From Flaccisagitta enflata (Eukaryota), in the NCBI GenBank assembly GCA_965153355.1, contig OZ231126.1, positions 19,096,001-19,160,000 on the forward strand: a stretch of DNA of 64,000 nt, read 5' to 3'. Positions within the stretch are counted from its first letter, which is position 1. Each line of letters starts with the position of its first letter. Shown one piece after another: positions 11,047 through 46,123 of the stretch. The notes below the pieces were generated by a model, which searched no databases, was not told the origin of the DNA, and saw only the letters and a list, made by a program, of their open reading frames with translations. The position numbers and the translations under genes were made by a program.

Positions 11047-11058
11047 TCTTTCTTTTTT

Positions 11059-11125
<67 letters not shown>

Positions 11126-20030: not shown

Positions 20031-23000
20031 CTATGATGAATCAAGGGACTCAACTAATTGCTTTATAAGGTCTAGGTTAACAAGAAATAATTTCAATGTC
20101 TTTCTGCTTCCTTTTGTCTCAAAAACAGGCCTCATTGGTAAGACTGACTCCTTAAGAATAGAGGAAGGCTTTGCAGATACATCATCAACCCAATGGGACA
20201 AAGACTGTTGTCCTCTGACATTCACAGACTTCATAAAAAGTACATCTGCACATTCCAGATAGCATTTTTGCACATTACCAATGCAGAAACTATTCCCAAC
20301 TAAAACTGCTATATGCTCTTGTTCTTTCAGGGGCCAACAACCATTTGAAAGCCACACTGAGGGATCTAATGAGACCTCAGGTGAAAGGTCCAGTCTTTCA
20401 ACCTCATTTACTCCACCTGCCTCATCATAAAGTGCTTCTATGTCGCTTAAGGATGCATGACATTTTGGTTTTGTATCATCTGTCAAGAGCTGTTTCAGAT
20501 GAATGATGCGGACTTTGTTATCAATTCCCTGTTGTTTGAAAAGCTCATTGTTGGTAGCCACTTTAAGAAGGCAAGTGAATTTTCTGTATCGAATTTCAAA
20601 ATTCAATGCAGAAGCAAGTTCCTTGTCATTTCTTTTATCTTTTATCAGCTGATCTAATTCAGCTAAAGTGTGAATGGGTCCACCATGACTTTCTTTGCAT
20701 TGACGGACAACCCTCTGAACCTTGGATTCCTTGGAAAGAACCACCGCTTCATCTTCACGTAAGCCAGCAGCCATAAGTGACTTTTGTCTTTTATCAAACT
20801 GCAACTGGAGTTCATCAACCTCCTTAGTAATAGTTTTTAAGGGCCTCAAGTTAAAGTTTCCCTTTTCCAAGTATTTTTGAATTAGGTCCTCTGTGTGTTT
20901 TATGACAAGGTCATCACATATTTTGTCTTTGGATTGACATCCTCCAGACACTTTTGTTTTTTGGTCGACTTCACCAAAAAATTGTTCAACTGCAATGGAG
21001 GTTGTCTCAACATTATCCACGTTTTCTTCTGATACTTGATTGAGAATACTTAGCTGTGGCTGTGAACCATCCCCAAATCCAAATATATCTCCCTTTTGAC
21101 GCTTAAACCCAATGGCTATTTCTTGTGCTACATCCTTGCAAAAAAGTTCCAAATATTTGGTATCAATTTCATGGAGATAGTTTTCCAAAAAATCTATTTG
21201 TGTTTTTGGGTATGGTGGGTCAATTTCATCATTGGGGTCAATCCAAGCATCCTTTAAACAAGGGATGGCAGGTTCTCTCAACTGAGTGAAGCTAAGAGGA
21301 GTTTCAAGCATTTCCTTGTAAAGTTGTGGAAAAATTTTCATTAACTCAGACATTTTTGCCCGCTTAATCATAAGCAAATTGACATAGGGCTCTCCTATGT
21401 GGATGCCAATCAATGCTGCTCCAATCCAATAAAACAAAATAACATCATGCATAGGGAAAGCACTTCTTAAAAAACATGTTAACTTATTACGAATATCCGA
21501 GTGGATCTGCAGAAAATGTTCAATATGGCTGAAATGATAAGCTCCAGTAAGTGCTTTTGCCTCCAGCTCCCCAAACCTTATTTCACGCAAGGGGCCTGTT
21601 TCATTTTTCAATCCCTTCCTTTCAAGCCACTCAGTGAATTCATGATACTTGTTCCATGACCGCTCTGCCCACTGCTTTGAAGCAAGACTCATCAATGCAT
21701 CCAGCACTTGCTTGACAAGTGAATCACTGGAAGCATCCAAATTGCAATACTCCAAGCTTGGGAAGAGTTTGTCATGGCCAATTTTTGACTGATGCCTCAT
21801 CCAAATTTCAACAACACTTCTGGACATCATAAGTCTAGGGTGAAGGTTGCAGTATGCTTGTCCTGGTTGCCAAGCACACCCAAGTTGTTGAGCCACATCT
21901 ATGGCCAGATTCATATTTACCTTACACATGTCTGAGACTAGGACCATGATGCTTTGCCAAATGCTAGAGACTTCTTGTCCTGAAGCAATTGCCAGGCGTT
22001 TGATCATGTGAACAATAGTTTCAACCCATGATGAATGATTTTCTGAGCCCAGTGTTTGAAGTCTTAATGCCCTATATTTCTCACCAACTTTGACAATTGC
22101 TCCTGCCATTTTCCCCCACCCTCCTTGACGTGCGGTGCCATCTGGGATTAAATTTGCATTTTGCAAACTAATCATTTCTAAAGCCTGTTCCTGTTCTCCC
22201 AGAGTACTGATTAAGTGATGTGCAGCCCTCAATGCAGTTGGTGTACATAGCATTCTTGATAAAACCTCTTTCCTCCCTTGATCTGATATTCCGCGTTCTT
22301 CTACCTCAATCAAGTCATCATTCTTTTCATTTTCTGAAAGGCAGTTGCTATCTACTGGTAGTTGTTCTTGGTCAGTCTCCAAATCTGCATGAGTAGTTAC
22401 TATGTCTGCTACTTCCTGACGCGTTTGCACAGTCTGTTCAGTAGTACTTTCTTGGCTAACTGATGGAGTCATTTTGGCTAGCTTTCTACGCAGTTTCATT
22501 TTTTTCCTGTATTCTTTCTCAAGTGAAGGTGGGAGGATGTAATTTTGTCGAAAAAGAATGTTAGCAGCAATCTTAGTGCAAAGGATTGCCTGTTTAGTGC
22601 TGACACCTGCTACTCCCATCATAAGAGAACCAGTTGCAAGGAGACGAGGATTTAATCTCCGTGAGGTAGATTTGTTTTTCTTAGAATAAAGCCTTGTGCT
22701 AACAGTGGGGAAGAGACTATCATCAGTTTGACTAGCTATGCTCCGTTTGCTAGTTCCATTTATTGCAGCTTCTAAATCAAAACTTTTAGTTGAGCGAGTC
22801 CTCACTGCTGAAATATATTGAACTTCTCCTATGTCAGATGATGAGTCCTCAAGAACCTCCTCTGTCTCATCTGCCCTACAGTCAGAATCAGTTGAAATAG
22901 CAGAATAGTCCATAGTTGCACTAGCTATGTAATTTCTGTGTCTACGTTCTCGTTCGCTTTTTTGGCTTAAATGAAGCTCAAATTCCTCTGTAACCTTTGA

Positions 23001-23663
23001 TGTGTCCAAGCGTAATTTTCTGGGTCCTCTTTGGTCTGCAAGGAATTCCTCATCGAAAGCATCACCATGTGTGATTACTTTGACCCTTTCCTGCTTGCTA
23101 AAAATATCAAAAAGTTCACAACCTACTTGAGACAACCATTTTTGTTCAGCACTAGAATCAGTTCTCAAATTGAGTTTACGTGGCATATCTGATTTTTTCT
23201 GAACCTGAACATTCACCACTTCATCAATAATTTCTGAAAGTAATGCAGAAACATCCTCATTTATGTCACTATCTTCAAATGGTGGGAGTGTTACACATCT
23301 TTTGAACTTTGATGTAGATGCCCTCTTAGATGGTTGCCTACTTGTATTGGGGAGCCTACGCTTCTTTGTGAACTCTGAAGGTGATCGGGATGGCATTGGG
23401 GGATTGATGCAATTTTTTTCATTACGCAACTTGTCTAAAAAATAACTGCGGTCTTTCAGAAGACTTTTGCAGTGTTTTATGATGGCTGGTTTAGACATGG
23501 GGCATACATCAGCATTTTTCCAAATCTTTCCAATTTTTTCAGCTGCATCAGCCATCGCACCATTTTGTGAATATCCCCCATGTTTTGTTCGAGTTGTAAT
23601 AAATGTAAAAACTTGTCCCTTAGTAGGTAGCATATCTTTTTTAAAGAAAAAAAGCTTATCCAT
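20031..23663 (-). CDS. Intact single-exon DDE transposase, ~1210 aa (hAT/Kolobok-type CxxH class; hATm-like N-terminus)
   Basis: Uninterrupted ORF; first ATG at 23663 (MDKLFFFK). N-terminal LPTKGQV...IWKNADV, LFDI and FLADQRGPRK motifs. Candidate catalytic D (IPDGT), D (VSDMCKVN), CxxH (YCNLHP) and E (VEQFFG). Confidence 0.85.
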   Translation of the reverse strand: MDKLFFFKKDMLPTKGQVFTFITTRTKHGGYSQNGAMADAAEKIGKIWKNADVCPMSKPAIIKHCKSLLKDRSYFLDKLRNEKNCINPPMPSRSPSEFTKKRRLPNTSRQPSKRASTSKFKRCVTLPPFEDSDINEDVSALLSEIIDEVVNVQVQKKSDMPRKLNLRTDSSAEQKWLSQVGCELFDIFSKQERVKVITHGDAFDEEFLADQRGPRKLRLDTSKVTEEFELHLSQKSERERRHRNYIASATMDYSAISTDSDCRADETEEVLEDSSSDIGEVQYISAVRTRSTKSFDLEAAINGTSKRSIASQTDDSLFPTVSTRLYSKKNKSTSRRLNPRLLATGSLMMGVAGVSTKQAILCTKIAANILFRQNYILPPSLEKEYRKKMKLRRKLAKMTPSVSQESTTEQTVQTRQEVADIVTTHADLETDQEQLPVDSNCLSENEKNDDLIEVEERGISDQGRKEVLSRMLCTPTALRAAHHLISTLGEQEQALEMISLQNANLIPDGTARQGGWGKMAGAIVKVGEKYRALRLQTLGSENHSSWVETIVHMIKRLAIASGQEVSSIWQSIMVLVSDMCKVNMNLAIDVAQQLGCAWQPGQAYCNLHPRLMMSRSVVEIWMRHQSKIGHDKLFPSLEYCNLDASSDSLVKQVLDALMSLASKQWAERSWNKYHEFTEWLERKGLKNETGPLREIRFGELEAKALTGAYHFSHIEHFLQIHSDIRNKLTCFLRSAFPMHDVILFYWIGAALIGIHIGEPYVNLLMIKRAKMSELMKIFPQLYKEMLETPLSFTQLREPAIPCLKDAWIDPNDEIDPPYPKTQIDFLENYLHEIDTKYLELFCKDVAQEIAIGFKRQKGDIFGFGDGSQPQLSILNQVSEENVDNVETTSIAVEQFFGEVDQKTKVSGGCQSKDKICDDLVIKHTEDLIQKYLEKGNFNLRPLKTITKEVDELQLQFDKRQKSLMAAGLREDEAVVLSKESKVQRVVRQCKESHGGPIHTLAELDQLIKDKRNDKELASALNFEIRYRKFTCLLKVATNNELFKQQGIDNKVRIIHLKQLLTDDTKPKCHASLSDIEALYDEAGGVNEVERLDLSPEVSLDPSVWLSNGCWPLKEQEHIAVLVGNSFCIGNVQKCYLECADVLFMKSVNVRGQQSLSHWVDDVSAKPSSILKESVLPMRPVFETKGSRKTLKLFLVNLDLIKQLVESLDSS

Positions 23664-24666
23664 TTTTACATTAATAAAAGAAAAGAAAATATAGTATTTT
23701 ACAACTGGATAATATCTAAGAAATACTATATATTTCACTTAAGTATTCTCTTAAGAAAAAAAACTTTTAAAAACTTTAATGCCCTACTTTAATGTTGTCT
23801 CAAGATACCCTACTCAAAGATAAGCTCATGTACCTCTAGTTAAGGAAAAAAATGTGAAAAAAAATGGTTGATATCGATAGTAACAAGAAAACAATCAACG
23901 CTTCTTTCAAAGGACAGATAAAGTTATGGATACACAGACGCACATAAGCGAAAGGAAACATAAGTCAAGCTCAATCAGCTTCGTACAAGCAGCTTGACTC
24001 TTTTTTACACAAGATCGCAAGAGATAACACTTTTAAAAAGTGAATTATTGGTTTAAGAGATGTTTTTTTTTGAAAGGAAATAACGAGATCGCTCCGAAGG
24101 TAACAAAATTGTAAACCGCAGCGAGCAGCAACCGGCAACTGTGATTCACGCTAAGCCGCGCCGCAGCAGCAGCAGCAGCCGCGGCAGGAACCGAGTTTTA
24201 CCTGACAGCAGCGCGCTCGTCAGAAATCGAAAGTTGAGAAATATTGTGACAGACATGTCAACGTAAACAGCCTAGATTCTGCACATTTAATTATAAAACC
24301 CCTCAATATGAGTATCATTAGAAAGAGAAAGCCTCGCTCTTACTATGTCAGTAGTTTTTTCGCTGATTTAACCCTCTCAGTCCCCTCTACTAATGATTGG
24401 TTTTCAATTGAATATCATCGGGGCGTGTGATACACACGTCAAAACAGTTTTGAGTCAAAATTGGGCGATTGGATGTATTAAGATATGCTGGAAACATACT
24501 GAAATTTAAGTGTTTTAAATCGGTTCAACCTGTCGAAAACGATTTTTTTTGCCTTTTATCATCATTCTCATAAATGAAAAGAGAAAAAATTTGAGGTGCT
24601 GATTATTCCGGGAGCCATTTAAAAAAAAGGCAAAAAAAGGTTGTTTTTACAACATTTTACTGTACA

Positions 24667-26878: not shown

Positions 26879-27149
26879 TACTGTACCTTTGGAGAAGTTA
26901 CACTCGAAATTAAGAGGTTGTGTCACATGTGTCCATCCAAAATACCCATACCGAGCCCTACCCTGACCTTGTCCCCACCCATATCCTAAAATTTTGCAGA
27001 AAAAAGTTAGTTACAAAGCTAAGCTGAAACTGGCCGATGTTGTGTGGATGATTTAGTATAAAATCCAAAGAAACACCAAGATGAGCAATTAGAGTGATAA
27101 TGCAATTTTTAAAATTGCAGAAAATCAAGATGAAACATCTTTTCATATG

Positions 27150-27700
27150 CAGCAGATATTGTCTAGACTTGGAAATACGGGGAATTCATTACAAAAAGAA
27201 AAATATACCTAAGAAACTGATATTTGGAATCTAGACTAATAAAAAGATGCTTTATTGCCCATAGGTATTTGTTGCTATGTAAACACGTTCATGTGTTCAA
27301 GCTGAAGTATCAATATTTGATAAATTTGAGAGAACTTGGTTTAAATTAAAATTTGCTACAATTTTCCCCTAATTTGCTCTGTAAGAACGTCGCCCATTCA
27401 GCCATTGCTAGGGAGCGTAACTATGTGACAGCCCTGTGATGCTCCCTAGCAACCGCAAACATGCGATATTCTTACAGAACATTTTGCGAAAAAATTATGG
27501 CAAATGTTATTTCAAATATTCCCTCAAAAAATCTCTAAATATTGAAACTGCGTGAATACATAAAGATGTGTTTCCATGGCAACAAACACCTATAAGCGAT
27601 ATAGCTTCCTTTTATTAATTTAGATTTCAAATCAGCCTCAAGTTTATTTATCTTCCTGTAATAAATTCCCCGTATATCCAAGTCAAGACGACATCTACCG
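27150..27700. mobile_element. Palindromic MITE, Tc1/mariner-pogo-like
   Basis: CAGCAGATATTGTCTAGACTTGGAAATACGGGGAATT versus AATTCCCCGTATATCCAAGTCAAGACGACATCTACCG|TA. Same TIR family as 42447-45792. Confidence 0.8.
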
Positions 27701-27924
27701 TAACAATTTGAAGAAACAAGGATGAATGCCTATCTATGGATACGTTATTTGCGCTTTCTGCGACTACATTTGGCGCGTACCCCCAGGAGAGGGGGGTTAC
27801 TCATTTTTACGCGCACAAAAAACAACCACAGACCAACAGACAGACGACAGACTGATGGACGAGGCTCGCATAGAGATGCAAGGACGCATCCAAAAATTTT
27901 TTTAGAAGACATTTTCCATTTTTG

Positions 27925-28263
27925 ACTTGCATCTAAATTTTTCAATCTGCGTTTTAACCTTCTTGCTCATAATTTGATAATAAACTAGTGGCCAAAGAAA
28001 AAAAACAAGAGAAACAAAAGAGCGAGAAAGACAAAAACAAGAAAAAGATAAGAAGCCCATAAACAAAGATAGAGGGAGAGATAATCTGCATCTAAATTGC
28101 ATCTAAATTGCATCTAAATTTTTCAATCTGCGTTTTAACCTTCTTGCTCATAATTTGATAATAAACTAGTGGCCAAAGAAAAAAAACAAGAGAAACAAAA
28201 GAGCGAGAAAGACAAAAAGAACAAGAAAAAGATAAGCCCATAAACAAAGATAGAGGGAGAGAT
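27925..28263. repeat. Direct tandem duplication of ~180 bp
   Basis: TGCATCTAAATTTTTCAATCTGCG...GATAGAGGGAGAGATAA occurs twice (~27928-28084 and ~28109-28265). Confidence 0.9.
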
Positions 28264-28776
28264 AAAGAGACAAAAAACAAACAAAACGAATCACTAAATC
28301 AAACAATCAAACAGCAATTACGCGCAATAAGCTGCACTGAAAAAAAAGACTCCCATTTACGACATTTTCCCGGTCGGCGATAGACGCCTATATTGTACTC
28401 GCTATATGCTTTTAGAAAGCTAACTTCACCTATTTAACTGATTAGCGAACTGACACTGAAGCCCTTGGGCCACCCTCAGGGCTGATTGGTCGGTTGGCGG
28501 CCCACATGTTGCAATGTCCCAATAGATTCCAACGAAGGAAAAGAAACGGACACTGTTGGAAGTCTGTTTGCTTGCAGTGGAGGCCATGATTGGACGATAT
28601 CTTGTTAAAGGAAGCTCAAAACGTGTCTAAATAGGGTCGGTTTTAGGTTTTATCGCGTCAAGGACGGCCCCAGTACACTCGAAAATGGACAGGATCACCC
28701 CCGCCCAAGGAAGGAAGAAGAGATGGAAGCTTTTCTATACTCTGTAAAAAAAAGCAAAGAGGTGGAAGCGACAAAA

Positions 28777-28782
28777 TTTATT
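28777..28782 (-). terminator. Candidate polyadenylation signal of the nucleoplasmin-like/miRNA transcript
   Basis: First minus-strand AATAAA I can find downstream of the stop at 30352. Followed by a U-rich tract (A-run at ~28746-28753 on the plus strand). Confidence 0.5.
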
Positions 28783-28889
28783 AAATGTAATTTGATGGTT
28801 TAGGAAACAATGACGACGGATTCAATAGACAAACTAGTTGACAGAGAAATCACTCGGAGGAAAATGGTCGTAGACAAATAAGGCAATAA

Positions 28890-28945
28890 CGAGAACTGTC
28901 GATCTGTGATAAATATCATGAAAATCGCAAAAAGACAATCCAGAT
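28890..28945 (-). ncRNA. pre-miRNA-like hairpin K1; predicted 3p UAUCACAGAUCGACAGUUCUCG
   Basis: Arms TGTC..TGTGAT / ATCGCA..GACA around a ~13-nt loop. Seed AUCACAG. Confidence 0.6.
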
Positions 28946-29009
28946 CAGTACCCACATAAGTGAATGAATGCCGGAATGAAATGAGCACGATGGAACTAGA
29001 TAGCAATAA

Positions 29010-29068
29010 CAGAAGCTGTCATTCTGTGATAATTTGTTAATAATCATATCACAACTTGACAACCTTAG
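29010..29068 (-). ncRNA. pre-miRNA-like hairpin K2; predicted 3p UAUCACAGAAUGACAGCUUCUG
   Basis: GCTGTCATTCTGTGATA / TATCACAACTTGACAAC arms, 15-nt loop. Confidence 0.7.
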
Positions 29069-29103
29069 CCATCACCATTTTTTTGGCGATGTTAATAAGC
29101 TTA

Positions 29104-29175
29104 TGCTCAAGATGGCACAACACGCTGCCCAATTTAGGTAAAAACATTGGGCAAAATGCGGTGCCATACTGCGCA
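29104..29175 (-). ncRNA. pre-miRNA-like hairpin G1; predicted 5p UAUGGCACCGCAUUUUGCCCAA
   Basis: ATGGCAC...TGCCCAAT / ATTGGGCA...GTGCCAT arms, 12-nt loop. Plus-strand A-C mismatches become G-U pairs on the minus strand. Confidence 0.75.
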
Positions 29176-29246
29176 GCAAAGCGAAAAAATCAAATGAGTC
29201 AAGTAGCGTTAAAATGTTTGCGAAAACGTAAAACAAATGGCAACGA

Positions 29247-29307
29247 CGATAACTGTCGATCTGTGATATACGACAACAAATACATCACAAATAGACAGCC
29301 CTTATCG
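29247..29307 (-). ncRNA. pre-miRNA-like hairpin K3; predicted 3p UAUCACAGAUCGACAGUUAUCG
   Basis: CTGTCGATCTGTGAT / ATCACAAATAGACAG arms. Confidence 0.7.
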
Positions 29308-29406
29308 GCACCAATGTATTCACATAACTGCCCCTGAACGTCAAGATGATACTGAAAGGAAGACGGTGCATTAAGACGACATCGAAAGGAAGAATTTGTA
29401 AGGCAA

Positions 29407-29466
29407 TGGTAAAAGCTGTCATTCTGTGATAATTTCATTACCATCACATTGTGACAACTTGAACCA
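29407..29466 (-). ncRNA. pre-miRNA-like hairpin K4; predicted 3p UAUCACAGAAUGACAGCUUUUA
   Basis: TGGT..AAGCTGTCATTCTGTGAT / ATCACATTGTGACAACTT..ACCA arms, 12-nt loop. Confidence 0.7.
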
Positions 29467-29514
29467 GCACCTTTCCGTAATATCAAGCAGAGGACGTAAA
29501 CAGCTTGCGATTAG

Positions 29515-29572
29515 AACGGCACTGAACATGGCCCAATTTCAATAATATTGGGCAAAATACAGTGCCATTATG
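29515..29572 (-). ncRNA. pre-miRNA-like hairpin G2; predicted 5p AAUGGCACUGUAUUUUGCCCAA
   Basis: GGCACTG...GCCCAAT / ATTGGGC...CAGTGCC arms. The arm variant (CAGTGCC versus CGGTGCC) is matched by GGCACTG in the opposite arm. Confidence 0.7.
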
Positions 29573-29677
29573 AACATTCAAGCAGTAAGTAATGAGGTAA
29601 GAAAATTAACGGGCAATAAGTTGTTTTTTTTTCTAAAGAAATGCTCAATTTGAAGCAGTAGTCGACTCATGGCAATA

Positions 29678-29736
29678 GCGCAGGCTGTCTTACTGTGATA
29701 ATCAGATAACCATATCACTATAAGACGGCCTGGGCC
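29678..29736 (-). ncRNA. pre-miRNA-like hairpin K5; predicted 3p UAUCACAGUAAGACAGCCUGCG
   Basis: CAGGCTGTCTTACTGTGATA / TATCACTATAAGACGGCCTG near-perfect stem, 12-nt loop. Confidence 0.75.
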
Positions 29737-29773
29737 AGCACCAATAACATTGACAGAGGAAAGGGGCTTGCAA

Positions 29774-29840
29774 TCAGAATAGCACGGCACCATGCCCAAT
29801 TAAAAGGTGAAGTTTGGGCAAAATGCGGTGCCATAATGAA
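29774..29840 (-). ncRNA. pre-miRNA-like hairpin G3; predicted 5p UAUGGCACCGCAUUUUGCCCAA
   Basis: ATAGCAC...TGCCCAA / TTGGGCA...GTGCCAT arms. Mature arm identical to G1 and G4. Confidence 0.7.
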
Positions 29841-29889
29841 CGCTAAGCTTTAGTCGCAGAATAACAATGACTGAGAATTAAGGCCATAA

Positions 29890-29946
29890 AAAGAATTGTC
29901 ATTCTGTGATGTCCGGACAAGCTAAGATCACAAAGTGACAATTCTC
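29890..29946 (-). ncRNA. pre-miRNA-like hairpin K6; predicted 3p CAUCACAGAAUGACAAUUCUUU
   Basis: AGAATTGTCATTCTGTGAT / ATCACAAAGTGACAATTCT arms, 16-nt loop. Confidence 0.75.
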
Positions 29947-30029
29947 ATTAGCACCTCTAAAAAAGTGTCAAATTGGAGTAAGAAAACCGTCAGTCAATAT
30001 ACCCAAAGAGCTAATGATGGCATCGCAAA

Positions 30030-30082
30030 AAGAGCTGTCGCAATGAGAGCTGTCATACTGTAATAATCAAGAAAGACAGCCC
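30030..30082 (-). pseudogene. Degenerate K-type hairpin K7
   Basis: GAGCTGTCATACTGTAATA has a mutated seed. The opposite arm is truncated (AAGACAGC), and there is a local AGAGCTGTC duplication. Confidence 0.5.
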
Positions 30083-30112
30083 AGCATCGGAAAAGTTAAG
30101 ATGTAAAAGGCT

Positions 30113-30190
30113 CATGTTGAGAATAACACAGCACGCAGCCCAATAGGACGGTCATGACATTGGGCAAAATGCGGTGCCATATTGTACATT
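30113..30190 (-). ncRNA. pre-miRNA-like hairpin G4; predicted 5p UAUGGCACCGCAUUUUGCCCAA
   Basis: ATAACAC...GCCCAAT / ATTGGGC...GTGCCAT arms. AACAC pairs fully only as minus-strand RNA (G-U). Confidence 0.7.
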
Positions 30191-30351
30191 TAAGCGATAA
30201 GGACGGAAAGAATTGCTGTTTAAGTGTAGCGAGTAAAATCCTTGTGAAAAAGAGGCGGAGAGTTGTTACGGAGCGAGATTAAAACGCGAGATTAAAGGAG
30301 AGACGATTGAGAAATGAGTCAAATGTGAGTCCCATATTTGTCGACAAAAGT

Positions 30352-31921
30352 TCATTCTTTAGCCTTGCGGTCCTTGGACGTTGGTTCTCCGACTTCCTTG
30401 GCGTCCTCGGTGATATCCTTGACCTCATCCCCATCAACTTCGTCACCTTCGGTCTCCATTCCAGACGCGTCGGAGGTCTCCAAGTCGGCCTTCGAGTCGT
30501 CTGGCTTGAAGTCCTCCGTGTCGACGTCGGCATCGGCGTATGACTCGACGATGTAATTGCCGAGGATAGACACGGGACCGGATCCCTTGACCAGTTTCAG
30601 CGTAACGTCTCGGCCGGAAATCATCTCAATGCGAAGATCCAATCGGCAGAATTCGCTGACGCCTAAGAGAGGGGTTAAGGATTATGATTGAACTTAATTA
30701 CACCAGCTATTGGACAGCAGTTACAAATCTTATCACCTACGCCATTAGGCATAATTACTGTTACCACTTAATTGTAAAATTATGCGGGTCATGGAACTGA
30801 GCGAAAACACGACCTGAGATACATGAAATACACTTTTTAAAAGAACATCAAGGCTTCAAAATGCACTAAAATTACAAACGTATTAGTAGCTATCTCTTTT
30901 GAAAGCTTCGAAAATAAAATGACGTTCTTATAGAAAAAAGTCGGTCCGTCGGTCGGGTTGTCGGTCCGTTACGCCTGTGCAAAAACCGCGTTTCTCAGCT
31001 GTTTTTGGCCACGGTGAGATCCTATACTGAAACAAATGATCAACCAACATGTTTTGAGAGCCTTTTCTCCCTGTCTGTCCCATCTGTCTCTCCATATACA
31101 TGTCACATGATCAATACACAAAGAGACACAGCCCGGACGCATCGTTGCCTGGTCGGGCTTGTTAAAAGAACATCAAGGCTTCAAAATGCACTAAAATTAC
31201 AAACGTATTAGTAGCTATCTCTTTTGAAAGCTTCGAAAATAAAATGACGTTCTTATAGAAAAAAGGTCAAAATTCATAAAATTCATAAAATTCATAAAAT
31301 TCGTAAACATGATGGCAAGACAAACCGAGAGTGAGGGCAGTAAGCACATGACGCGCCTCCTTGTCGTCGCGATCGTGGTAATGAATCTCGACCACGTTGC
31401 GATCCTTCTCAGCGTCGACGCCCAAAGCCGCAGACTTGAACACCAGGAAGTGACTTTCGGTGTCCGCGTCAGCGTCGACCGGAAACTTGACGGCGTGCGT
31501 GTCACTTTTCCTATGGAAACAGACAAAATAGAATTATTACAAACTTTCGACTTACCTAACGAGCCGTTTCAGCGTTATTTATCACAAATGCGCAGTTCAA
31601 AGTCCAACAGAAGAAAACGTTCCAAATTTTTACACACCTGGAAAGTTCGCATCCCCACAGATGGTGAGTTTCGTTGGGCTCGAGATATTCTTCCATTCTG
31701 GACGACCCGTTGGAGACGAAGCTGCTCTCATCACCGGAATCTGCCGAAGTGGAACGACCGGACTTCATAGAAGCCGTTCTCGACGAAGAACGCGAACTCC
31801 TGGAGCTTCTCTTTTGGGCCGCGGCCTTTTTCAGAGCGTCGATCTTTTCCGCGGTAGATTCCGTGGAAGCCGCGGCGGTGGTGGTGGTGGTGGCAGCGGT
31901 GGTAGTTTCCGTCGGAGTCAT
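30352..31921 (-). CDS. Nucleoplasmin-like (NPL-domain) histone chaperone, 259 aa; exons 31921-31638, 31510-31326, 30662-30352
   Basis: GT-AG introns with matching phases (2, 1); CDS 780 nt. Motifs HLWGCELSR, AALGVDAEKDRNVVEIH and TLKLVKGSGPVSILGNY, then an acidic tail and basic C-terminus. Has a T/A/S/R-rich N-terminal extension. Confidence 0.88.
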
Positions 31922-32149
31922 CTTGTTAGAGTGGACGGCGGCGGTTGTGGGATTGAGTGTGAGTGAGTTTAACTGCGGAGAGAAGAGAAAATGAAAATGG
32001 CACAAGGCAATCGACATGAGCGCAAGTAACCGTTGGAAAAGATTAAGAGCAGACGGCACAATTAGAAAAACCTAACACTGACGACAGACTTAAATTGCAT
32101 TCTGCTTGGCTTCATAATTAAACGACCAAGAAACACGAGGTGAACGTCA

Positions 32150-32193: not shown

Positions 32194-32387
32194 CCATGCA
32201 CTGCTAACGACACAGCCCTAACAGCTGATCGTTCCGACTTCACCTCACCTCACAGCTGTCTCTCAGGTGAGAGAGGTGAGTTCCTGGGCCGGGTAAGAAT
32301 GAAGGACCTGCAAAGTCAGATATGGCAAGGAAAACGTGGAGGGCAGTGGCAATCAGACAATTTTTAGTCGCGTTCCCAGAACAAAGT

Positions 32388-32389
<2 letters not shown>

Positions 32390-32419
<30 letters not shown>

Positions 32420-32525
32420 GCCTTCATCAACATTTATTCCCGTCTTAATCATTCACATCATCATCATACTCATTTTCATCATCATTATCATCATTGTCAA
32501 CATCATCACTATCAACATCATCACT

Positions 32526-32567
<42 letters not shown>

Positions 32568-32659
32568 GCCGCCTTCATCAACATCATCATCATCATCATC
32601 ATTTTTATCAGCATCATCATCATTGTCAACATTATCACCTCCATTATCATCATCATCAT

Positions 32660-32691
<32 letters not shown>

Positions 32692-32692
32692 C
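32390..32692. repeat. Degenerate (CAT)n microsatellite
   Basis: Seen directly. Confidence 0.9.
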
Positions 32693-32915
32693 CTTTGATA
32701 TTCTGGTCTTGGTCGTAAACGTGTCAGCCACTTCTTTGTCCCTGACATCATCATTCCTTTGCATGGAGCGACCCTAAACATAGTGATGGCATCTCTAGGC
32801 CTCTCTAGTTATGGTCTTCTGGAATTTCTATGGTATAAATGGGCGTGTTGAATCGGGAAGAAGGCGCGTGCCACTGAATTGAATAAGTTTGAGACTAGAA
32901 TTATGATGGACGAAA

Positions 32916-33267
<352 letters not shown>

Positions 33268-36077
33268 TTGGAAAGAAGTACATAAAAAGAAGAGAATCAA
33301 ACATGTAAAAAAGAGAAAGCAAGACGAAAAATTGAAATGTCAGCTCACTATCATTTTTAGCTCTAGCTTAGCTCTAGCTACTGTTGGGTTCATGTAAAAA
33401 CTGCCAAAACTAGCTTTGACTTAGTCTAGTCTTAACTAGATGGAGGTATTGAGGCCGGTTAAGGCCTGATTAGAGGATGAAATGAGGATCCGTAGATCTT
33501 GTTACAGGCACAATTTCGTCTTGGTCCTCGATGAAGGGGGGCGTAGAATAGAGGGACACAGAACCAATTAGGTCATCGCTCTCTCTGGTGCCGATGCTCA
33601 TGAAAAAATGAATGGAAGGAAAAGTGAAAAAAGTGGGAAGAGAAAAGGAAGTAACATTAAAAAAGGTCTAAAAAGAGAGAAAAAAATCGATTGCATAGAA
33701 GTAAAAAATTGAGAGGCGGATTTAAAGGGAAGAAAAATACGAATATTTGCCATGAGGAAAAAAGCTTCCCATGAAAATGATAAGACTGATGGCCTTTTTG
33801 CGTTGCATAGAAAAATATCAGGGTGATGAAAGATGACTGATGAGGCAATTTTGAAGGAAAAAGAAAGGGTCTTGTTAAGGAGGGGGAGGGGGCAAGAGCA
33901 TTAAAAGGAAATGGAGGGTTGACAAGTAGTCAACGAGGCGAGCGGACAAATGAAGCTAAATAGTCGCAAAAGCGTTAGATGGTCAGCGTTACCCGTTGCC
34001 CCTATGAGTATATGTGGGTTTGTGATGCAGAGAGGGGCAGCGGCCCGCAAGGGGCTGATGACCTATGCTTTGTAAGTTTTGAAGCACTAGGCTTGAATTT
34101 CAGCAGCAATATTGAGATTTGAGCCATGATGCTTTGATTTGAGCCTCAAGGCGGTGATTTGAGCTTTGAGGCTGTGATTTAAGCCACGAGACTGTGATTT
34201 GAGCTGAGATGCCGGAATACAAGCCAAGACGTTGGGTTTTGAGCTTCAAGGCAGGGATTTGAGGCTTGAGGCTGGGACGTGAGCCTCGAGGCTGGAATTT
34301 GAGTCTTTGGCTGATTTACCTCAAGGCTAGAATTTGAGCATCGAGGCTGGTATTTGAGCCTCTAGACTAGGATTTGGGCCTCAAGGCTGGGATTTGAGCC
34401 TCAAGGCTAGGATATGAGCTTTGATGAGGGTTGACGGAGAAGGAGGAGGAGGAAGAGGAGAAGGAAAAATTTCCCTTATGTATGAAAGCATTGGTCATCG
34501 GCCTCTTCGGGGCCGCTGCCCAAAAAAGAAACTTCGGTAGGAACATAGATGGGAAGACTGCCCAAATTAGCTTAAGCACAAGTGTTATGGCGGATGGATG
34601 GATGGACAGACGGACGGGCCAACGAACGGACGAGCGTACCTAGCGTACACGCAACTGAAATATTCAGCTCTATAAAAGGCAGGGCTATAGGGTGGAGGTG
34701 GGGCGGGCCGCGTAATGATCCACTTGGATCTCCCTCCGCTGTGAGAAGACCGAACAAGAAACCGGGCAAAATTAAGAACATGGATTTAGAAGGGAAGTTT
34801 TTTGCGCCCATCAAGAGAGACGGGATTCTTGGGCTTAATCCAGCGTCTCATATCGTTTTCGGAAGGATCGCTCTCTGTCTCTTTTCTGGTCAATCTGTCT
34901 TTTTATACTTTTTCGGAGGGCTCGCTCTCTGTCTCTTATTTGGTCAATCTGTCTCACATCGCTTTTGGAAGGCTCTTTCTCTTTCTCTCTTTTGGCCAAT
35001 CTGTCTCGTATAGCTCTCGAGAGGCTGTTTCTCTTTTTTGATCAATCTGTCTCTCTGACTGTCACTGATGACCTTCAGTCAAAATTAATTTTGTTTCATA
35101 ACATGTATTTTTACCCTTCTCTCCATTGTCCCTTCTTTCACCCCGTCATGTCTCCTCTTTTTTTTATACTCTCTGGTGTCTGTAATGACAAGGTTCTGTC
35201 ATAGAACGTGAGACTGGTTTCAGTGGACCGATGAATGCATGTTATGAATGCTATGTAATCAAATATTATATTAGGTGCAATTTATCTTCTTTCACTGCAC
35301 AACGTCACCATCATGTCAGCCCACTCAGCTTAGTCCGCTACGTCAAAACTAAGCCACCATGACAAGCCATCACTGAGGCCGGCCATATAACGTGGGCTAG
35401 ACTCAAACTACTTTTGATTCCTGAAGGGCTGTAAATCAAACGTCGTTCAATGAATTCACGACGTTAGTACGATCAAGCGTCAAAGTTCCACGATGTCATT
35501 GAGAAGTCTCGATTTTAATCAACTTTCAATGACGGATCGGACGGCGAATGGAAACAAGGCCGGATACACGGCTACCCAAGTGGCGTTTGTGTGGGAAGGG
35601 ACAGTGAGAAAAAAGCCTAGCCGAGCCAGGCCGAGCATGAGGGCAAGAGCAAATATATGCAACAAGTGACGCGAGGTCACAATATCGTTGCGGACGGGTG
35701 GGCAGGGGCATCCAACCCCTATCCACACCTCAAGTCCCCCGCTCACATACACAAAAAGCATCTTAAACGCTTGTCTCCGCACTTTTCGAATTGGGTCACG
35801 GACCGACGGACGGACCGACGGGCGGACAAAGCCTCTTATAGAGTTGCGTGTTCGCAACTAAAAAAAAAACGCCCATAAACGCTAGTAAAGCTATGTGTTA
35901 CGGACGGACCGACGCGACGGACGAAGCAACAGACAAAGTGGAAACTTTTGAAAGTTTTGATATTCCTTACAGCCCTACACAAGACGGGGCATATACAACT
36001 TTTGTTTTTCATACTTGTGGTTTTGTGGATATTCACGCAGCATGAATCATGCTCATGTTGCTGTTGCTGTTGTTGTT

Positions 36078-36287: not shown

Positions 36288-37449
36288 AGGAAAAGAAAGA
36301 AAGAAAGAGAGACTGGGAAGGCAGAGAAAAATCTCTTCTTGAAGACGAAATGTCAAAAAGATTGAATCGTGAAAAGGGTAAAGCCCTCAAAAGGCCCCCA
36401 GATCTGGACGCAAGAACATCAACGGAATTCTACGCTTCATTAAAACGAACACAACTACAGACGGGACCCTAATAAGAGCGGAGGAGGGACCCAAAGTTTT
36501 AGCATCACCCCCTACAGCTTATAGTTCGGACGGAATATAAAATGCTATATGTCACTTTTCAACCCACCATACCCTACAGCCCAAACGGATCATCATATTG
36601 ACCTGAAATTTGGCATGGAGACTCACCATGACCATAGTTTTGGGGCCACCGAGGCGATTTTTGAGAAGTCGCCCCGTTCCAGAAATATGGGGGTGGGGTG
36701 GGGGTACCCCTGGGGGCAAAAATGTCAAAAATTTTTTTTTTCGATTTTTTTAATTTTTTTGACTCGGAGGCTTAATTTAGTGTCTTTGGCACCAAAATAA
36801 AGCATTTTTTCGGTATTTACTTTGATTGAATGCATATTTCTGTTATTTCAAACCTAACATGTCATTTTACTCATTTTTCCAGATTTTCGTCGATCTTCGA
36901 GGCTTGCGAATCATGCGCCAATAATAGCTACTATTAGCTAGTCCAGAGTTCTACAGTGGCTACCAGAAACAGTACGTTAGCTCATTAACATTAGAAAATA
37001 GGAGATAAGAGGTTGAAAATGCCTGATTAGGGTCTGGCAGCCTGCCTAATGATGCACCAGGTATCGTAGGGCGAAAAAAAAGGTAACTTTTTGTCTTGGC
37101 GCAACGCAAGAGTGAGTTAGGAATTCGGTTGAGAAATCCTTCTGTCGTCTGCTCAGGAAAATGAAAGTGTAATTTGTTTACCACAAGTCGTCAAACTTGA
37201 GCTAGGCTGACAAAATGACTGCCAGTCATGTACATGTTCTAATCTATTAGTAACTATTCTGCATCATTTAGGCCACAAGTCAAAGGCGACCAAACATTCT
37301 GCACTCATTCAAATTCATTACGCGATCATCCAGCACGAAGACTCCGAGGTAACTAGACATGTAAAGTAATTGAATGATAGGTGTAATGATTGGAAAAAGC
37401 TATAATTTAGGAGATAAAAAAACACCTGTTTGATATTTTACTCACAGAT

Positions 37450-38071: not shown

Positions 38072-39014
38072 ATGGCCAAGCGGAAGCGCAGAGACATTGA
38101 TGACAACGACGACAATTGGGAACCGGATAAACCTATCAAACCAATTGCCAAAAATGCCAGTTTGTTGGTGGCCCTCGCCAAGAAGAGGAGGACGAAAGGG
38201 AAGGTGGAATGGCGATGCGTCACCTGTGGGAAACGCTGCACAGACCGAACACAGTTGAACAATCACAAAAAATTGCATGGTAGTTGTAGCTTCACAAACT
38301 AGTAGTAGTACTAACATTTCTTTTTCAGGTTCTTGGACAATCCGTTGACCAAATCAAACGGTAATCTTCTTTGACCAAATGCTATGTCTATTTTTCTCAG
38401 TCCAAAAATCCGATTTGATGCCTCAAACTCAACCATCGATTCTCGGCGAACCATCAACTTCCGGCGAACCATCAACTTCCGGCGAACCATCGACTTCGGG
38501 CGAACCATCAACTTCCGGCCAACCATCGACTTCCGGCCAACCATCGACTTCCGGCCAACCATCGACTTCCGGCCAACCATCGACTTTGGGCGAACCATCG
38601 ACTTCGGGCGAACCATCGACTTCCGGCGAACCATCGACTTCCGGCGAACCATCGACTTCCGGCGAACCATCGACTTCACGCGAACCATCGACTCCCCACG
38701 AACCATCGACGTTTGGCCTCCCTTCGACTTCTTGCAAACCAACGGCTCAACAGAAAAGGAGAAAAAAAAGAGAAAAGCGTAAAGGCAAGTATAAAACTGA
38801 AATGTCAAGCATGATTTTTTTCCTGACGTTAGATAAGACATAAGTGAAGACCTCAAGAAAGTGATAGCTTTAGCGACTAAAAATCTGAAAGCAAATTAGT
38901 TTTAAAAATGATGGCAGAAAAGAAATTTTTGAGTTGAGATCACCAGTGTTTCAACTTGCTGCTGTGTGTGAAGTGTTAAAACGTTATCAATGTCAATTTA
39001 ATTAAATAGTGAAT

Positions 39015-39085
<71 letters not shown>

Positions 39086-41194
39086 GCCGGATTATCGTGC
39101 AACTTTTGTGGCAGACGTTACGCTTCCGTCGACAGTCTTTGGCTGCATAGAAAAACTTTCCACCTCAAGCGTGAGGTTTACCGATGCAAACGCATTGGTT
39201 GTCGATTTTCTTCCATCGACAAGTCCAATGTTGCTCGTCATCACGCACTCATCCATGTCCGTGGAAGAAAAGAATACATCTCGAGAAGGAGCATCTCATT
39301 GAAGAAAAAACGCGACGCCATCGAGTTTTGGAACACCTCCACCCTCTCAACTCCCGAAAAACGAAACCATGTCGAAATTCGCTTCCATTTGACCCCCAAT
39401 ACCCAGTCAAGAGTATTCCGAAAGACAGACAACACCATCAAAGCTAGACGTTCACTAGCTAAAAGCTATCGCGTCGAGGGTGGTGGCCGAGAGGTCGATG
39501 AATTTTGGATTCCGATCGAAGAAGGCCTTCTCCTTAAGTTTAAAGAGCGCCGGGCGATGGGCGCCGTTGTCAAAATTCGTCATCTCTTGGAGTTTGTCTA
39601 CGAGATTTGCGCAGAAAAAGGATTCAACATCGCTCTTGAGGCTCAAAAGCGTCAATGGGAGAACACGCGCGAAGTTCTTCGGAAAAGAGTCGGTCGCTTT
39701 CTGGAGAAATACAAAATTGTCGACAAACGCGCCAGTCGGCAAATTAACAAGAACGAGAAGGTAAATTAATCAAATAACCATACCGTCATACCAAACCTGA
39801 TGCTGTTTACTTCCTCACAAAAAATATCATGCTGTTTACTTCCCCACAAAATATCATGCCGTTTACTTCCCCACAAAAATATCATGAGACATTTAATTGC
39901 TTTCATGAAGGTTTTGGCCAGAGGCTCAGCGGAGATGCTTCAAAAAATTCGATGGATGCGCGCGCACTATGACATTCCTCCATCCCGAGTTTACAACTTT
40001 GATGAGCTCCGTTTGAATTCGTCCGAGCAAGGTCTGAATCAACGCACTCTTGAATTCGCTTCCGTTAAAGATCCCATCGTCAAAAAGATCGCCAACCCGA
40101 AGGAGGCATTTACTGGCATCTTGTTTGCAAACGCCGATGGGTCAGAGTTAATGGTTTTTCTCGTGACGAAGAAAGGGCTTCCGGTTGACAGCAACATCCA
40201 CACCATCACGGTCGAAGATCGAGATTGGAATTCAAAGGAACAAAGCGTCAATGTGAAGAAATTGGACGTTCAATTCACCATAATAAATGGAGTTACCGTG
40301 GTGAAGGTGCCTCCCGGCATGAAAGCTTGGTGCGGTGGGAAGGTCACAATCGCTTTTCTCCTTCTCACCTTGTTTCGTATGGACGAACCATCTATCCTAC
40401 AAGTAATTGACATATTCTGAGTTGATTTTCCAAAAGATTTCATAATAACTTCATCTTTGTAGAGTCGAGCATAAATGCTCCTCCAATCACTTTTTCCTTA
40501 TTTCAAATATATTCCATTTGCAGTTTGACGCAGCACCAGGACACTTAGATCCTGTGATTTGGCGCATCATCGCAGAATCGGGTCGTCTTCCCGTTCTCAC
40601 GCCACCTGGAGCATCAGGCTACGTGCAACCATGCGACTCCTTCATCAATGCATCCTTTCAAAAAGCCTATCAAACAGTAAGACAATGGGGTGCTTGAAGC
40701 AAAAAAAAATGACACTTAACTTAAATGACACTTAACTTAAATCAGTAAAACCTGTATCTTTTTTGCCATAGGAAACTGAAGAATGGTTGATCAGCAACAT
40801 CATTGCCCGACATCGCGACGACAACTTGGAAGACAGTGTCCCGAATCCTTCGCTTGCTGAAGTGTGCCAGCTGGTGGGGAAAGCTGCTCAAGCAGTTACT
40901 CCCGCCGTGCAGCGCAAGGCGTTTCGTGCAACAGGTGTGTCGTTAGCCATCGACGGGTCTGAGGACGATCAGATGACCAAGCCTTTGAAGGATCTGCTCG
41001 AGAAGCACAACCAAACCCCCGTCGTCAACACCGCGAACCTCACGCGCTTCATGACACCAGCTGCCTCAATGCAAAAGACGTCCATTTCAAAAATTTTCGA
41101 GATTCTCTGTGCCGATGCGGAAGCTTCAAAATCTTCAGAGTTTCGGCACGATCCCCCAGCTTTTTCCAAAAAACTCAAAAAAGATCAACGGTGA
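38072..41194 (+). CDS. Spliced pogo-type transposase, ~777 aa: 3 C2H2 fingers, (GEPSTS)n linker, CENP-B-type HTH, DD35D domain; exons 38072-38279, 38401-38784, 39087-39760, 39911-40402, 40524-40676, 40772-41194
   Basis: Exons join in frame (2334 nt); intron 2 uses AAG|GCAAGT. Fingers CVTC..H..H, CNFC..H..H and CKRIGC..H..H. Catalytic motifs YNFDE, QFDAAPGH and VQPCDSFIN with 35 residues between D2 and D3. The last four exons are more secure than the first two. Confidence 0.8.
38432..38732 (+). repeat. 18-bp coding minisatellite (GGCGAACCATCGACTTCC)
   Basis: About 16 units, all keeping frame; encodes GEPSTS/GQPSTS in predicted exon 2. Confidence 0.92.
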
Positions 41195-41212
41195 GAGAGA
41201 TACGAGAAAGAG

Positions 41213-41497
41213 ATGTCAATCACAAGCCCATTTTCAGATTCTCTTGAGTACACCAGACTTTTTGTCTACAGATTCAAATGTGCGGGATGTGGAGTCGAAT
41301 ACGCCACGAAAAATTATTCCAAAGCGAAAGTACATGTGCACGACTGCCCCACTCGCGCGTTTCTCTCAAGTGGATGGCGCCCCAACTCCAAGTCTTGGCT
41401 AGCGGCAAACGGTTTTTTTTGGAGGACGGATGCAGTGGTGGAGGGAGAGGTCTGTGTCTGTCCTAGACCTTGCAGGGCAGTCCACAAAATCGATTAA
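41213..41497 (+). CDS. Small Cys/His-rich (zinc-finger-like) protein, 94 aa
   Basis: Starts 18 nt after the transposase stop. Motifs FKCAGCGVEY...KVHVHDC and CVCPRPCRAVH. Confidence 0.45.
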   Translation: MSITSPFSDSLEYTRLFVYRFKCAGCGVEYATKNYSKAKVHVHDCPTRAFLSSGWRPNSKSWLAANGFFWRTDAVVEGEVCVCPRPCRAVHKID

Positions 41498-42462
41498 CTG
41501 TGCTGCTTAAATGGACACCTTGCATCATTTCTTTGTTTTCAATCCATTTCAAGCTTCCGGTTTCAATTTATATCTCAGCGTGGGTTCTTCACCAAATGTC
41601 TATTGCATTCCATTTCCTTTTGTGTTCATTAGATAAAAACAACATTCAGTGCTTGAAAAAAATTATACCTCTTTTGTGAAAATGGAGAGTGAAGCATGAT
41701 CTAGACGAAATAGTCAAATCGGCAAAAAGCAAAATTCTGCGTAAGTCTCAAATTTGACACTCTCTCATCAGAAGTCAATAAATCGTGATTGAAAACAGTT
41801 AGATAGGTTATAATGACATTTACTGGTGCCAAAGACACCAAACTAAGCCTCCGAGTCAAAAAAATTTAAAAAATCGAAAAAAAATTTTTTGTCATTTTTG
41901 CCCCCCAGGGGTACCCCCACCCCACCCCCATATTTCTGGAACGGGGCGACTTCTCAAAAATCGCCTCGGTGGCCCCAAAACTATGGTCATGGTGAGTCTC
42001 CATGCCAAATTTCAGGTCAATATGATGATCCGTTTGGGCTGTAGGGTATGGTGGGTTGAAAAGTGACATATAGCATTTTATATTCCGTTCAAGTTCAAGC
42101 AAATTTCTAACTTGCTGTGGTGGAATATACCTTAGGTGGATACAATTGGCGCCACTGTGGCGATTTTAAAATTTCCACCTAGAACACCCCTAAATTGTCA
42201 AAATTGGAGAAAAAATTGTTCATTTTTTTGGGGGGCGCCAGAGGGTGATTTTGCAAAATCTAAGGGTGTTCTAGGTAGAAATTCAAAAATCGCCACGGTG
42301 GCGCCAATTATATCCACCTAAAATGTCAACCGCCATAGCAAGTGAGAAGAATGCTTGAGCCATATAAGCTCTTGGGGGTGATGCTAAAACTTTGGGTCCC
42401 TCCTCCGCTCTTATTAGGGTCCCGTCTGTACATATACAACTACATAAAGTAGATGTCGTCTG

Positions 42463-45556: not shown

Positions 45557-45967
45557 TCAGGCAAAGGGATGAAGGCAAATGGATGAAGCTGAAGTTCTGC
45601 AGAAAAAGTGATTGATCCTAAAATTTTATACTTAAAGTTTTTTTTCCAAGGGTAAGCGGTAGGGGGATGCCATACCCCATCGTCAACCCCTTAGGGTCTA
45701 TACATTATATCAGCAAAATATCAGTCCCCTCACTATACTGATGCGCAGGTTATGAGCTCCCCCGTATTTCCAAGTCTAGACGACATCTACTGTACAAATA
45801 TATACCTTCTATCCTCCCTCCCTCCCATCCCCCCGTCTTTTTCTTTTTCTTTTTCTTTTTCTCTTTCTTTTTCTCTTTCTTTTTCTTTTTCTTTTTCTCT
45901 TTCTTTTTCTCTTTTTCTCTTTCTTTTTCTCTTTTTCTCTTTCTCTCTCTTTCACTTTCTCTCTCTT

Positions 45968-46020
<53 letters not shown>

Positions 46021-46076
46021 TTCTTCTCTTTCTCTCTCTTCCTCTTTCTTTTCTTCTCTTTCTCTCTTTCTTTCTT

Positions 46077-46123
<47 letters not shown>

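Follow-up and report, generated by a model that had tools for sequence, protein, structure and literature searches.

This study concerns an array of hairpins in the genome of the chaetognath Flaccisagitta enflata, found in a stretch of 64,000 nucleotides (nt) of contig OZ231126.1 (assembly GCA_965153355.1, positions 19,096,001 to 19,160,000). This whole stretch is called the window below, and all positions are given in its own numbering. The array is the untranslated region at the 3' end (3'UTR) of a spliced, polyadenylated mRNA that encodes a protein of the nucleoplasmin family, and the hairpins fill most of this 3'UTR. Here we argue that it is probably a cluster, amplified in tandem, of ten microRNA genes with one dead copy, the host mRNA being probably trans-spliced to a spliced leader (SL), and that the hairpins would be cut into microRNAs from within this mRNA.

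The array occupies positions 28879-30193 of the minus strand and consists of ten stable stem-loops of about 35 bp and one decayed copy (Table 1). When folded in 88-nt windows, the ten intact hairpins have minimum free energies (MFE) between -23.2 and -36.0 kcal/mol, which corresponds to z-scores of -2.2 to -6.1 relative to 200 dinucleotide-preserving shuffles, and all ten show the canonical geometry of at least about 16 pairs between arms of about 22 nt, a stem of about 35 bp and a loop of at least about 8 nt. Hairpins of two types, named after the invariant 7-mers AUGGCAC and AUCACAG, follow each other in a repeating order, an AUGGCAC hairpin being succeeded by one or two AUCACAG hairpins. 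In the AUCACAG type, 26 consensus pairs form a lower stem and an upper stem separated by an internal loop, and the terminal loop measures about 9-17 nt. An earlier note on this DNA, made from the letters alone, had listed ten intact stem-loops, an eleventh, degenerate copy and ten mature 5' ends: each of the ten hairpins indeed folds stably on the minus strand, all ten predicted ends coincide with the starts of the conserved arms, and the degenerate copy (h2), in which the 7-mer reads AUUACAG, still scores 15 bits against a covariance model built from the six intact AUCACAG copies. The same note had deduced the minus-strand orientation from G-U pairs, and this deduction is borne out, since the minus strand has 53 G-U pairs versus 9 on the plus strand and a summed hairpin MFE of -320 versus -240 kcal/mol. 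The strand is also set independently of the hairpins, by the splice sites and the poly(A) signal of the host transcript.

Table 1. Hairpins of the array and parts of the host transcript in the window (MFE in kcal/mol; z, z-score)
Feature	Positions	Strand	Details
h1, AUGGCAC type	30106-30193	-	conserved 5' arm 30181-30160, opposite arm 30143-30123; MFE -25.1, z -2.2
h2, decayed AUCACAG-type copy	30030-30090	-	AUUACAG at 30064-30058; MFE -15.9, z -1.6
h3, AUCACAG type	29879-29966	-	3' arm 29911-29890, first letter C; MFE -29.9, z -5.2
h4, AUGGCAC type	29760-29847	-	5' arm 29835-29814; MFE -33.8, z -5.6
h5, AUCACAG type	29668-29755	-	3' arm 29700-29679; MFE -34.1, z -4.3
h6, AUGGCAC type	29494-29581	-	variant 5' arm AAUGGCACUGUAUUUUGCCCAA 29569-29548; MFE -25.2, z -3.2
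h7, AUCACAG type	29399-29486	-	3' arm 29431-29410; MFE -33.2, z -6.1
h8, AUCACAG type	29236-29323	-	3' arm 29268-29247; MFE -33.5, z -4.6
h9, AUGGCAC type	29093-29180	-	5' arm 29168-29147; MFE -36.0, z -4.5
h10, AUCACAG type	28999-29086	-	3' arm 29031-29010; MFE -30.3, z -5.8
h11, AUCACAG type	28879-28966	-	3' arm 28911-28890; MFE -23.2, z -3.2
3'UTR of host mRNA	28763-30351	-	1589 nt, holds all eleven hairpins; continuous RNA contigs in three runs; stop codon 30354-30352
AATAAA poly(A) signal	28777-28782	-	contigs end 14-19 nt downstream, at 28763 (run X2) and 28768 (run X9)
Coding part of last exon	30352-30661	-	end of nucleoplasmin core, acidic tail, TGA stop
Middle coding exon	31325-31509	-	nucleoplasmin core, Pfam profile positions 8-64
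First genomic exon	31637-31972	-	first ATG at 31921; pyrimidine tract and CAG acceptor 31973|31972

The pattern of conservation between the copies is that of microRNA genes, the mature arm being better kept than the opposite arm, the loop and the flanks in both types of hairpins. The 7-mer AUCACAG occupies nt 2-8 of the 3' arm in all six intact copies (h3, h5, h7, h8, h10 and h11), and AUGGCAC takes up nt 2-8 of the 5' arm in all four hairpins of its type (h1, h4, h6 and h9). Between copies of the AUCACAG type, the mean pairwise identity amounts to 100% in the seed, 74% in the mature arm, 64% in the opposite arm, 28% in the loop and 24% in the 5' flank; in the AUGGCAC type the respective values are 100%, 93%, 72% and 32%, with 56-57% in the flanks. 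Three copies, h1, h4 and h9, share the same 22-mer UAUGGCACCGCAUUUUGCCCAA, as had been noticed before, while h6 deviates from it at 3 positions. The six-copy AUCACAG element, also noticed earlier, holds up as well: the pattern ATCACAGNNNGACA has six matches in the window, all on the minus strand inside the cluster, versus 0.02 expected from shuffles. A 21-nt pattern of the AUGGCAC type has four matches in the window versus 0.00 expected. The related claim that the opposite arms change in ways that preserve pairing stands for the AUCACAG hairpins (n = 6), where 8 of the 26 predicted pairs show compensatory changes; of the 18 common pairs of the AUGGCAC hairpins, 5 show a change on a single side and 2 fail to pair in one copy. 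The repeat units, each made up of an AUGGCAC hairpin and the next AUCACAG hairpin, are 68-76% alike overall (68% over about 175 nt); therefore, the duplications appear to be old, and the identical arms must have been maintained by selection. A search of the remaining 62.7 kb of the window with blastn and with two unfiltered covariance models yielded no further copies. When the 21-nt pattern was sought in metagenome contigs of JGI, three matches were found (L001-L003), which had neither a hairpin nor an adjacent AUCACAG element and were set aside as chance. Separately, a palindromic stretch at 7442-7561 weakly matches both hairpin models on both strands (18.4 and 16 bits) and seems unrelated to the cluster.

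The nature of the transcript can be judged from public sequence data. The stretch is present in 19 of the 24 public runs listed, from 10 studies, mostly marine metagenomes and metatranscriptomes; 10 of the 19 are RNA runs, and none of the 24 is labeled as a small-RNA library. Four runs were compared with positions 27000-32000, and three of them, X2, X6 and X9, which come from three studies, gave contigs. The X2 contig, unbroken over 2468 nt, equals 28763-30661 joined to 31325-31509 and 31637-31972; in X6 and X9, these pieces are spread over two to three contigs. Both joints, seen in two to three runs, are bounded by CT..AC on the plus strand, that is, by GT..AG on the minus strand; therefore, the contigs originate from RNA and their strand is fixed as minus. 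The three exons form one open reading frame that is continuous across the joints, its stop codon precedes the first hairpin, h1, by 170 nt, and the AATAAA at 28782 is the sole match of AATAAA, ATTAAA, AGTAAA or TATAAA between the stop codon and position 28740. The earlier description of the array as a polycistronic cluster is thus correct insofar as the cluster is transcribed as one RNA, with continuous contigs in three runs, but its picture of a free-standing cluster has to be abandoned in favor of a 3'UTR, given the X2 contig, the in-frame exons and the single AATAAA.

Between the window and the RNA contigs the identity is about 98%, and the differences are those between haplotypes or sister populations. 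The distribution of these differences within the cluster is uneven: among the 15 substitutions listed in 28879-30193, which represent the best-supported differences, none falls into the 434 nt of arms, 2 are found in loops and 13 in spacers or h2, and the chance of finding 0 of 15 in the arms is about 0.0025 (0.67^15). The decayed copy h2 holds two of the haplotype differences.

The identity of the host protein follows from several comparisons. Scanned singly, the consecutive exons match consecutive parts of the Pfam profile Nucleoplasmin (PF03066), the second exon its positions 8-64 with 25.6 bits and the third its positions 82-100 with 18.3 bits. Over 258 amino acids, colinear across both junctions, the spliced product agrees to 99.6% with a protein from the databases, P0017, which scores 61.8 bits over positions 1-100 of the profile, the cut-off being 25.8. 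A search with the product of the third exon retrieved 24 longer proteins, all annotated with PF03066, while a phmmer search with the 61-residue middle exon against PDB sequences gave no matches. Past the first ATG, the window differs from the RNA contigs by 10 synonymous and 5 non-synonymous changes and by an in-frame insertion of 18 nt; the synonymous excess and the preserved frame indicate that the host gene is real, coding and under constraint. Two contigs of JGI, 2451 and 2622 nt long, encode versions of the same protein with 229 and 216 residues, P0018 and P0019, the latter with 93% protein identity. In these two gene calls, the TGA stop is read as W and the product continues past the conserved ...KAKE end, most likely owing to the genetic code chosen by the gene caller; this read-through shows that the respective contigs extend into the same 3'UTR. 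Nucleoplasmin-type proteins are histone and nucleolar chaperones typical of oocytes and early embryos.

The 5' end of the host mRNA suggests that it is trans-spliced. The first genomic exon starts at a pyrimidine tract and a CAG acceptor (Table 1), and the X2 contig has five non-genomic letters at this place. In P0017, the residues that precede the first exon-encoded ones are L-F-K, whereas the genome would give S-P-Q; no genomic donor that would encode L-F-K was found within 8 kb upstream. According to Table 3 of Marletaz et al. 2008 (PMC2481426), forms 2, 3 and 4 of the chaetognath spliced leaders all end in TTGTTTAAA. This sequence translates as L-F-K, exactly the residues before the junction in P0017, so that 9 nt of the leader are readable. 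In the more distant homologues P0024 and P0030, the N-terminus reads M-G-E-A-N-F-Y-Y-F-T-C-L, and the residues from E to L are what a translation by hand of SL3.2 of Flaccisagitta enflata gives in the second frame. The leader of calanoid copepods, considered as an alternative source of L-F-K, has another 3' end and does not fit. Hence the host mRNA, judging from these sequences, probably carries a spliced leader and would resemble, in the foreign 5' sequence joined at a CAG acceptor, the chaetognath trans-spliced mRNAs as reported in PMC2481426, from which it differs in that 9 nt of its leader can be read, by way of a near-identical protein. Taken by itself, the leader evidence makes a chaetognath very probable as the source, in line with the abundance of the animal in ocean metatranscriptomes, and it outweighs an Atlas hint at Mollusca, which goes back to a single member of known phylum. 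Upstream of the acceptor at 31972, at a distance of about 220 nt, the minus strand has a TATAAATA box (32192-32185), which may mark the start of the outron if the mRNA is trans-spliced.

In 8 of the 10 hairpins, a downstream CNNC, reportedly described as a processing motif by Auyeung et al. in 2013, starts at +17 to +20 relative to the predicted 3' end of the 3' arm, which is about the expected distance, and it does so most often at +18 (5 hairpins); given a background of 0.17 per 4-nt window of the UTR, this corresponds to P of about 2.5e-5 for copies that are related and cut sites that are predicted. We infer that the hairpins are processed into microRNAs by Drosha and Dicer. Microprocessor would crop each stem about 11 bp above its base, aided by the downstream CNNC, Dicer would then free duplexes of about 22 nt, and the arms loaded into Argonaute would be the 3' one in the six AUCACAG hairpins and the 5' one in the four AUGGCAC hairpins. 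In this way, two seed families would be supplied together and at a high dosage, from six and four copies, respectively, and the repressed targets would be mRNAs with K-box-type sites (the complement of AUCACAG) and GUGCCAU-type sites. Each cropping event would part the coding region from the poly(A) tail, such that the protein and the microRNA output of one RNA molecule would exclude each other and microRNA production would be paid for in host mRNA; the full-length RNA in libraries of the poly(A) type would then represent the fraction that escaped cropping.

When the relation to known microRNA families is considered, the seeds and the overall similarity give different answers. We take AUCACAG to be the seed of the mir-2 family and AUGGCAC, at nt 2-8 of the 5' arm, to be that of miR-183/96/182 (miR-263a/b in the fly). 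The earlier assignment of the two types to the K-box family (AUCACAG on the 3' arm) and the miR-263/183 family (AUGGCAC on the 5' arm) is right as to seed and arm, in six of six and four of four hairpins, but finds no backing in the Rfam scores, which are below the cut-offs. At the gathering level, Rfam has no matches over the whole window. Among the 4227 Rfam families, the best for h9 is mir-96 (RF00669), with 27.8 bits against a cut-off of 65 and an E-value that is 0.0028 on the 1.35-kb region and 7e-4 on 341 nt; mir-2 (RF00047) reaches 18.5 bits in h8 and 17.9 bits in h10, the cut-off being 45.5, and mir-2944 matches the same two hairpins weakly. Weak matches to mir-556, mir-36, mir-2076, small nucleolar RNAs and bacterial small RNAs were dismissed as chance or generic likeness of hairpins. 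The observation that the 3' halves are unlike those of the canonical members proved accurate, as the mir-2 alignment needs a deletion of 4-5 nt and the mir-96 alignment a gap of 3 nt after the seed. Membership in the mir-2 and mir-96/183/263 families is thus suggested by seed and arm, with the Rfam thresholds missed. Since both invariant 7-mers equal ancient seeds and stand on the right arms, a coincidence that is unlikely to arise by chance, it appears more likely that the hairpins descend from these families, their 3' halves having diverged strongly, than that the likeness arose by convergence.

The mir-2 family, as presented by Marco, Hooks & Griffiths-Jones 2012 (PMC3384581), has grown by tandem duplication, yields its product from the 3' arm and has an ancestral link to mir-71 that is not obligatory. 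The array shares with the protostome mir-71/mir-2 clusters of that account the tandem hairpins in one transcript with an identical seed in all copies, the arm of the product (the dominant one there comes from the 3' arm, its 5' end being set by the Dicer cut) and the shifts of copy number by tandem duplication and loss, to which the one dead copy can be compared. It departs from the mir-2 family in the 3' half of the mature arm, which does not align (the Rfam alignment scores 18 bits, the cut-off being 45.5), and from the mir-2 clusters in that the array is interleaved with a second, unrelated seed family, resides in the 3'UTR of a coding gene and has no mir-71-like motif nearby: a single, chance-level match to a 9-nt start motif of mir-71 lies 21 kb away on the other strand. 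The miR-183 family is dated by Dambal et al. 2015 (PMC4551935) to the protostome-deuterostome ancestor and is, on the same account, usually clustered; the AUGGCAC seed on the 5' arm is common to that family and the array. The array differs in the gap after the seed, the rest of the 3' half being loosely mir-96-like, and in the alternation of four near-identical copies with AUCACAG hairpins.

Several observations weigh against the interpretation of the array as microRNA genes borne by the host mRNA. RNA of the hairpins is as deep as that of the coding part, or deeper, in libraries of the poly(A) type (196 versus 109 in X6, 13 versus 6.7 in X9), which could mean that much of the RNA is uncropped in the sampled animals or that a second transcript exists, and an assembled contig can fuse transcripts that overlap. 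Among 12.2 million reads of X24, a poly(A) RNA run of the organism itself, about 6% of this run, none matched, a result that does not count as a test. Besides the empty result of Rfam at its gathering level, mir-96 is reported for only one of the four AUGGCAC hairpins and mir-2 for only two of the six AUCACAG hairpins (the other four give none at E up to 10), all far under the cut-offs. In the AUGGCAC hairpins (n = 4), none of the 18 pairs is changed on both sides, and the lower stems of h1 and h6 are weak in the MFE fold. The ten copies are paralogues, and counts over hairpins are hence not independent. Finally, about 3 (X2), 2 (X6) and 13 (X9) differences between the cluster and the contigs are outside the list of substitutions and could fall in arms.

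The depth of the hairpin RNA could also be explained if the microRNA genes were real and had their own primary transcript that overlaps the 3' end of the nucleoplasmin gene, either from a start of its own between 30351 and 30193 or by read-through. In X6 and X9, the depth of the cluster contigs is about 1.8-1.9 times that of the coding contigs, the assembly breaks between the two parts at 30498/30533 in X6 and at 30194/30198 in X9, and a contig that spans two genes does not prove a single transcript. However, the 3' bias that we suppose for cDNA libraries could account for the depth ratio, the X2 contig runs unbroken from the spliced coding exons to the poly(A) site, and the four hexamers are all absent between the stop codon and 28782, so that the coding mRNA has no evident earlier end; moreover, the two JGI contigs encode the host protein, and P0018 reads into 3'UTR sequence. 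We consider a separate transcript unlikely. An array without functional microRNAs, in which the stem-loops act in cis on stability, localization or Microprocessor-mediated decay of the mRNA, appears to be decidedly improbable. It would agree with the accumulation of uncut mRNA with the hairpins, and cleavage of the hairpins of the Dgcr8 mRNA by Microprocessor without a microRNA function is described in PMC2736397; but structure alone requires neither an invariant seed nor the far better preservation of one arm compared to the other, the CNNC motifs stand at the expected distance, and both 7-mers are ancient microRNA seeds on the right arms (for mir-2, as given in PMC3384581).

Repeats and inverted duplications abound in the window, and the array might for this reason be viewed as a hairpin repeat of transposon or satellite origin that was captured by the 3'UTR. 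However, the identity of the spacers has dropped to 24-57% whereas the arms were kept, the opposite of what a young repeat should show; in addition, blastn and the two covariance models detected no other copy in the 64 kb, and the three JGI matches to the 21-nt pattern lack hairpins. We give a captured repeat very little credence. What speaks for a lineage-specific, amplified two-seed microRNA cluster, as envisaged in the earlier note, is the geometry, the conservation of arms, the fixed arm for each seed, the transcription as one RNA and the singularity of the array in the window; the missed Rfam family thresholds are the part of that claim that did not find support.

The rest of the window contains diverse open reading frames and repeats. 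An unbroken frame of 1235 codons at 20031-23738 (-) belongs to no Pfam family and has 15 relatives of 31-99% identity, 14 of them known from ENA alone and one from Logan as well; the frame could be a gene restricted to the lineage or encode a protein of a mobile element. Two frames of 113 codons with near-identical translations, at 12215-12553 (+) and 17004-17342 (-), suggest an inverted duplication with about 4.5 kb between the copies, which may be the ends of a mobile element. A similar inverted pair, 36525-36797 (+) and 41869-42165 (-), surrounds a run of frames at 39002-41494 (+), one of which has a sub-threshold C2H2 zinc finger (23.5 bits versus 25.2), an arrangement that looks transposon-like, and a third opposite-strand pair with closely similar translations is found at 55862-56164 (+) and 58929-59387 (-). 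Long microsatellite blocks with a purine/pyrimidine bias and spurious open frames in several frames occupy 11002-11695, 32280-33397, 45695-46788 and 51926-53273; one of these begins only about 300 bp upstream of the acceptor of the host gene.

The location of the array calls for a comparison with exonic microRNAs, of which Chang & Hancks 2025 (PMC12465437) report on coding genes of human and mouse with 201 small RNAs, and Shenoy & Blelloch 2009 (PMC2736397) on about 10 fully exonic ones in the mouse. As in those cases and in the hairpins of the Dgcr8 mRNA, the hairpins sit in a mature mRNA, and cropping should destroy the message; in contrast to them, since exonic microRNAs are treated in these papers as individual, mostly mammalian cases, ten hairpins fill a 3'UTR of 1.6 kb. 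In mouse embryonic stem cells, according to PMC2736397, host mRNAs of exonic microRNAs were not measurably affected and only Dgcr8 was a true target of Microprocessor; therefore, the coupling between host mRNA and microRNA output in Flaccisagitta enflata is a matter for testing rather than for assumption.

With this reservation, one may speculate that a single mRNA serves as an obligate two-way switch, yielding a nucleoplasmin-type chaperone when intact and a burst of two seed families when cropped, with the balance of Microprocessor activity timing a developmental transition; we offer this idea tentatively and would not yet bet on it. Amplified clusters of microRNAs that act in the early embryo, such as the mir-309 cluster and miR-430, are known in other animals, and the switch, if it exists, would resemble them.

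A full-text search for six mature-arm strings returned no papers, its scope being article texts as distinct from supplements, miRBase and MirGeneDB; among the matches listed, there was no relevant paper that ties nucleoplasmin to a microRNA cluster and no microRNA catalogue of a chaetognath, a search on plankton microRNAs brought up ecology papers only, and microRNAs go unmentioned in the main text of the chaetognath genome paper of 2025. If our interpretation is true, the array would, as far as these searches reach, provide the phylum Chaetognatha with its first described microRNA cluster. A bare cluster of the mir-2 type would not be surprising, such clusters being common in protostomes. Less ordinary is the joint amplification of two unrelated ancient seed families in a repeating order, and so is the position of the array as the 3'UTR of a translated, conserved gene, which would force a choice between message and microRNA upon each RNA molecule. 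The placement of chaetognaths among the protostomes has long been debated, which makes conserved microRNA families useful characters, and, as the locus is visible in ocean metatranscriptomes, its expression can be followed in the wild.

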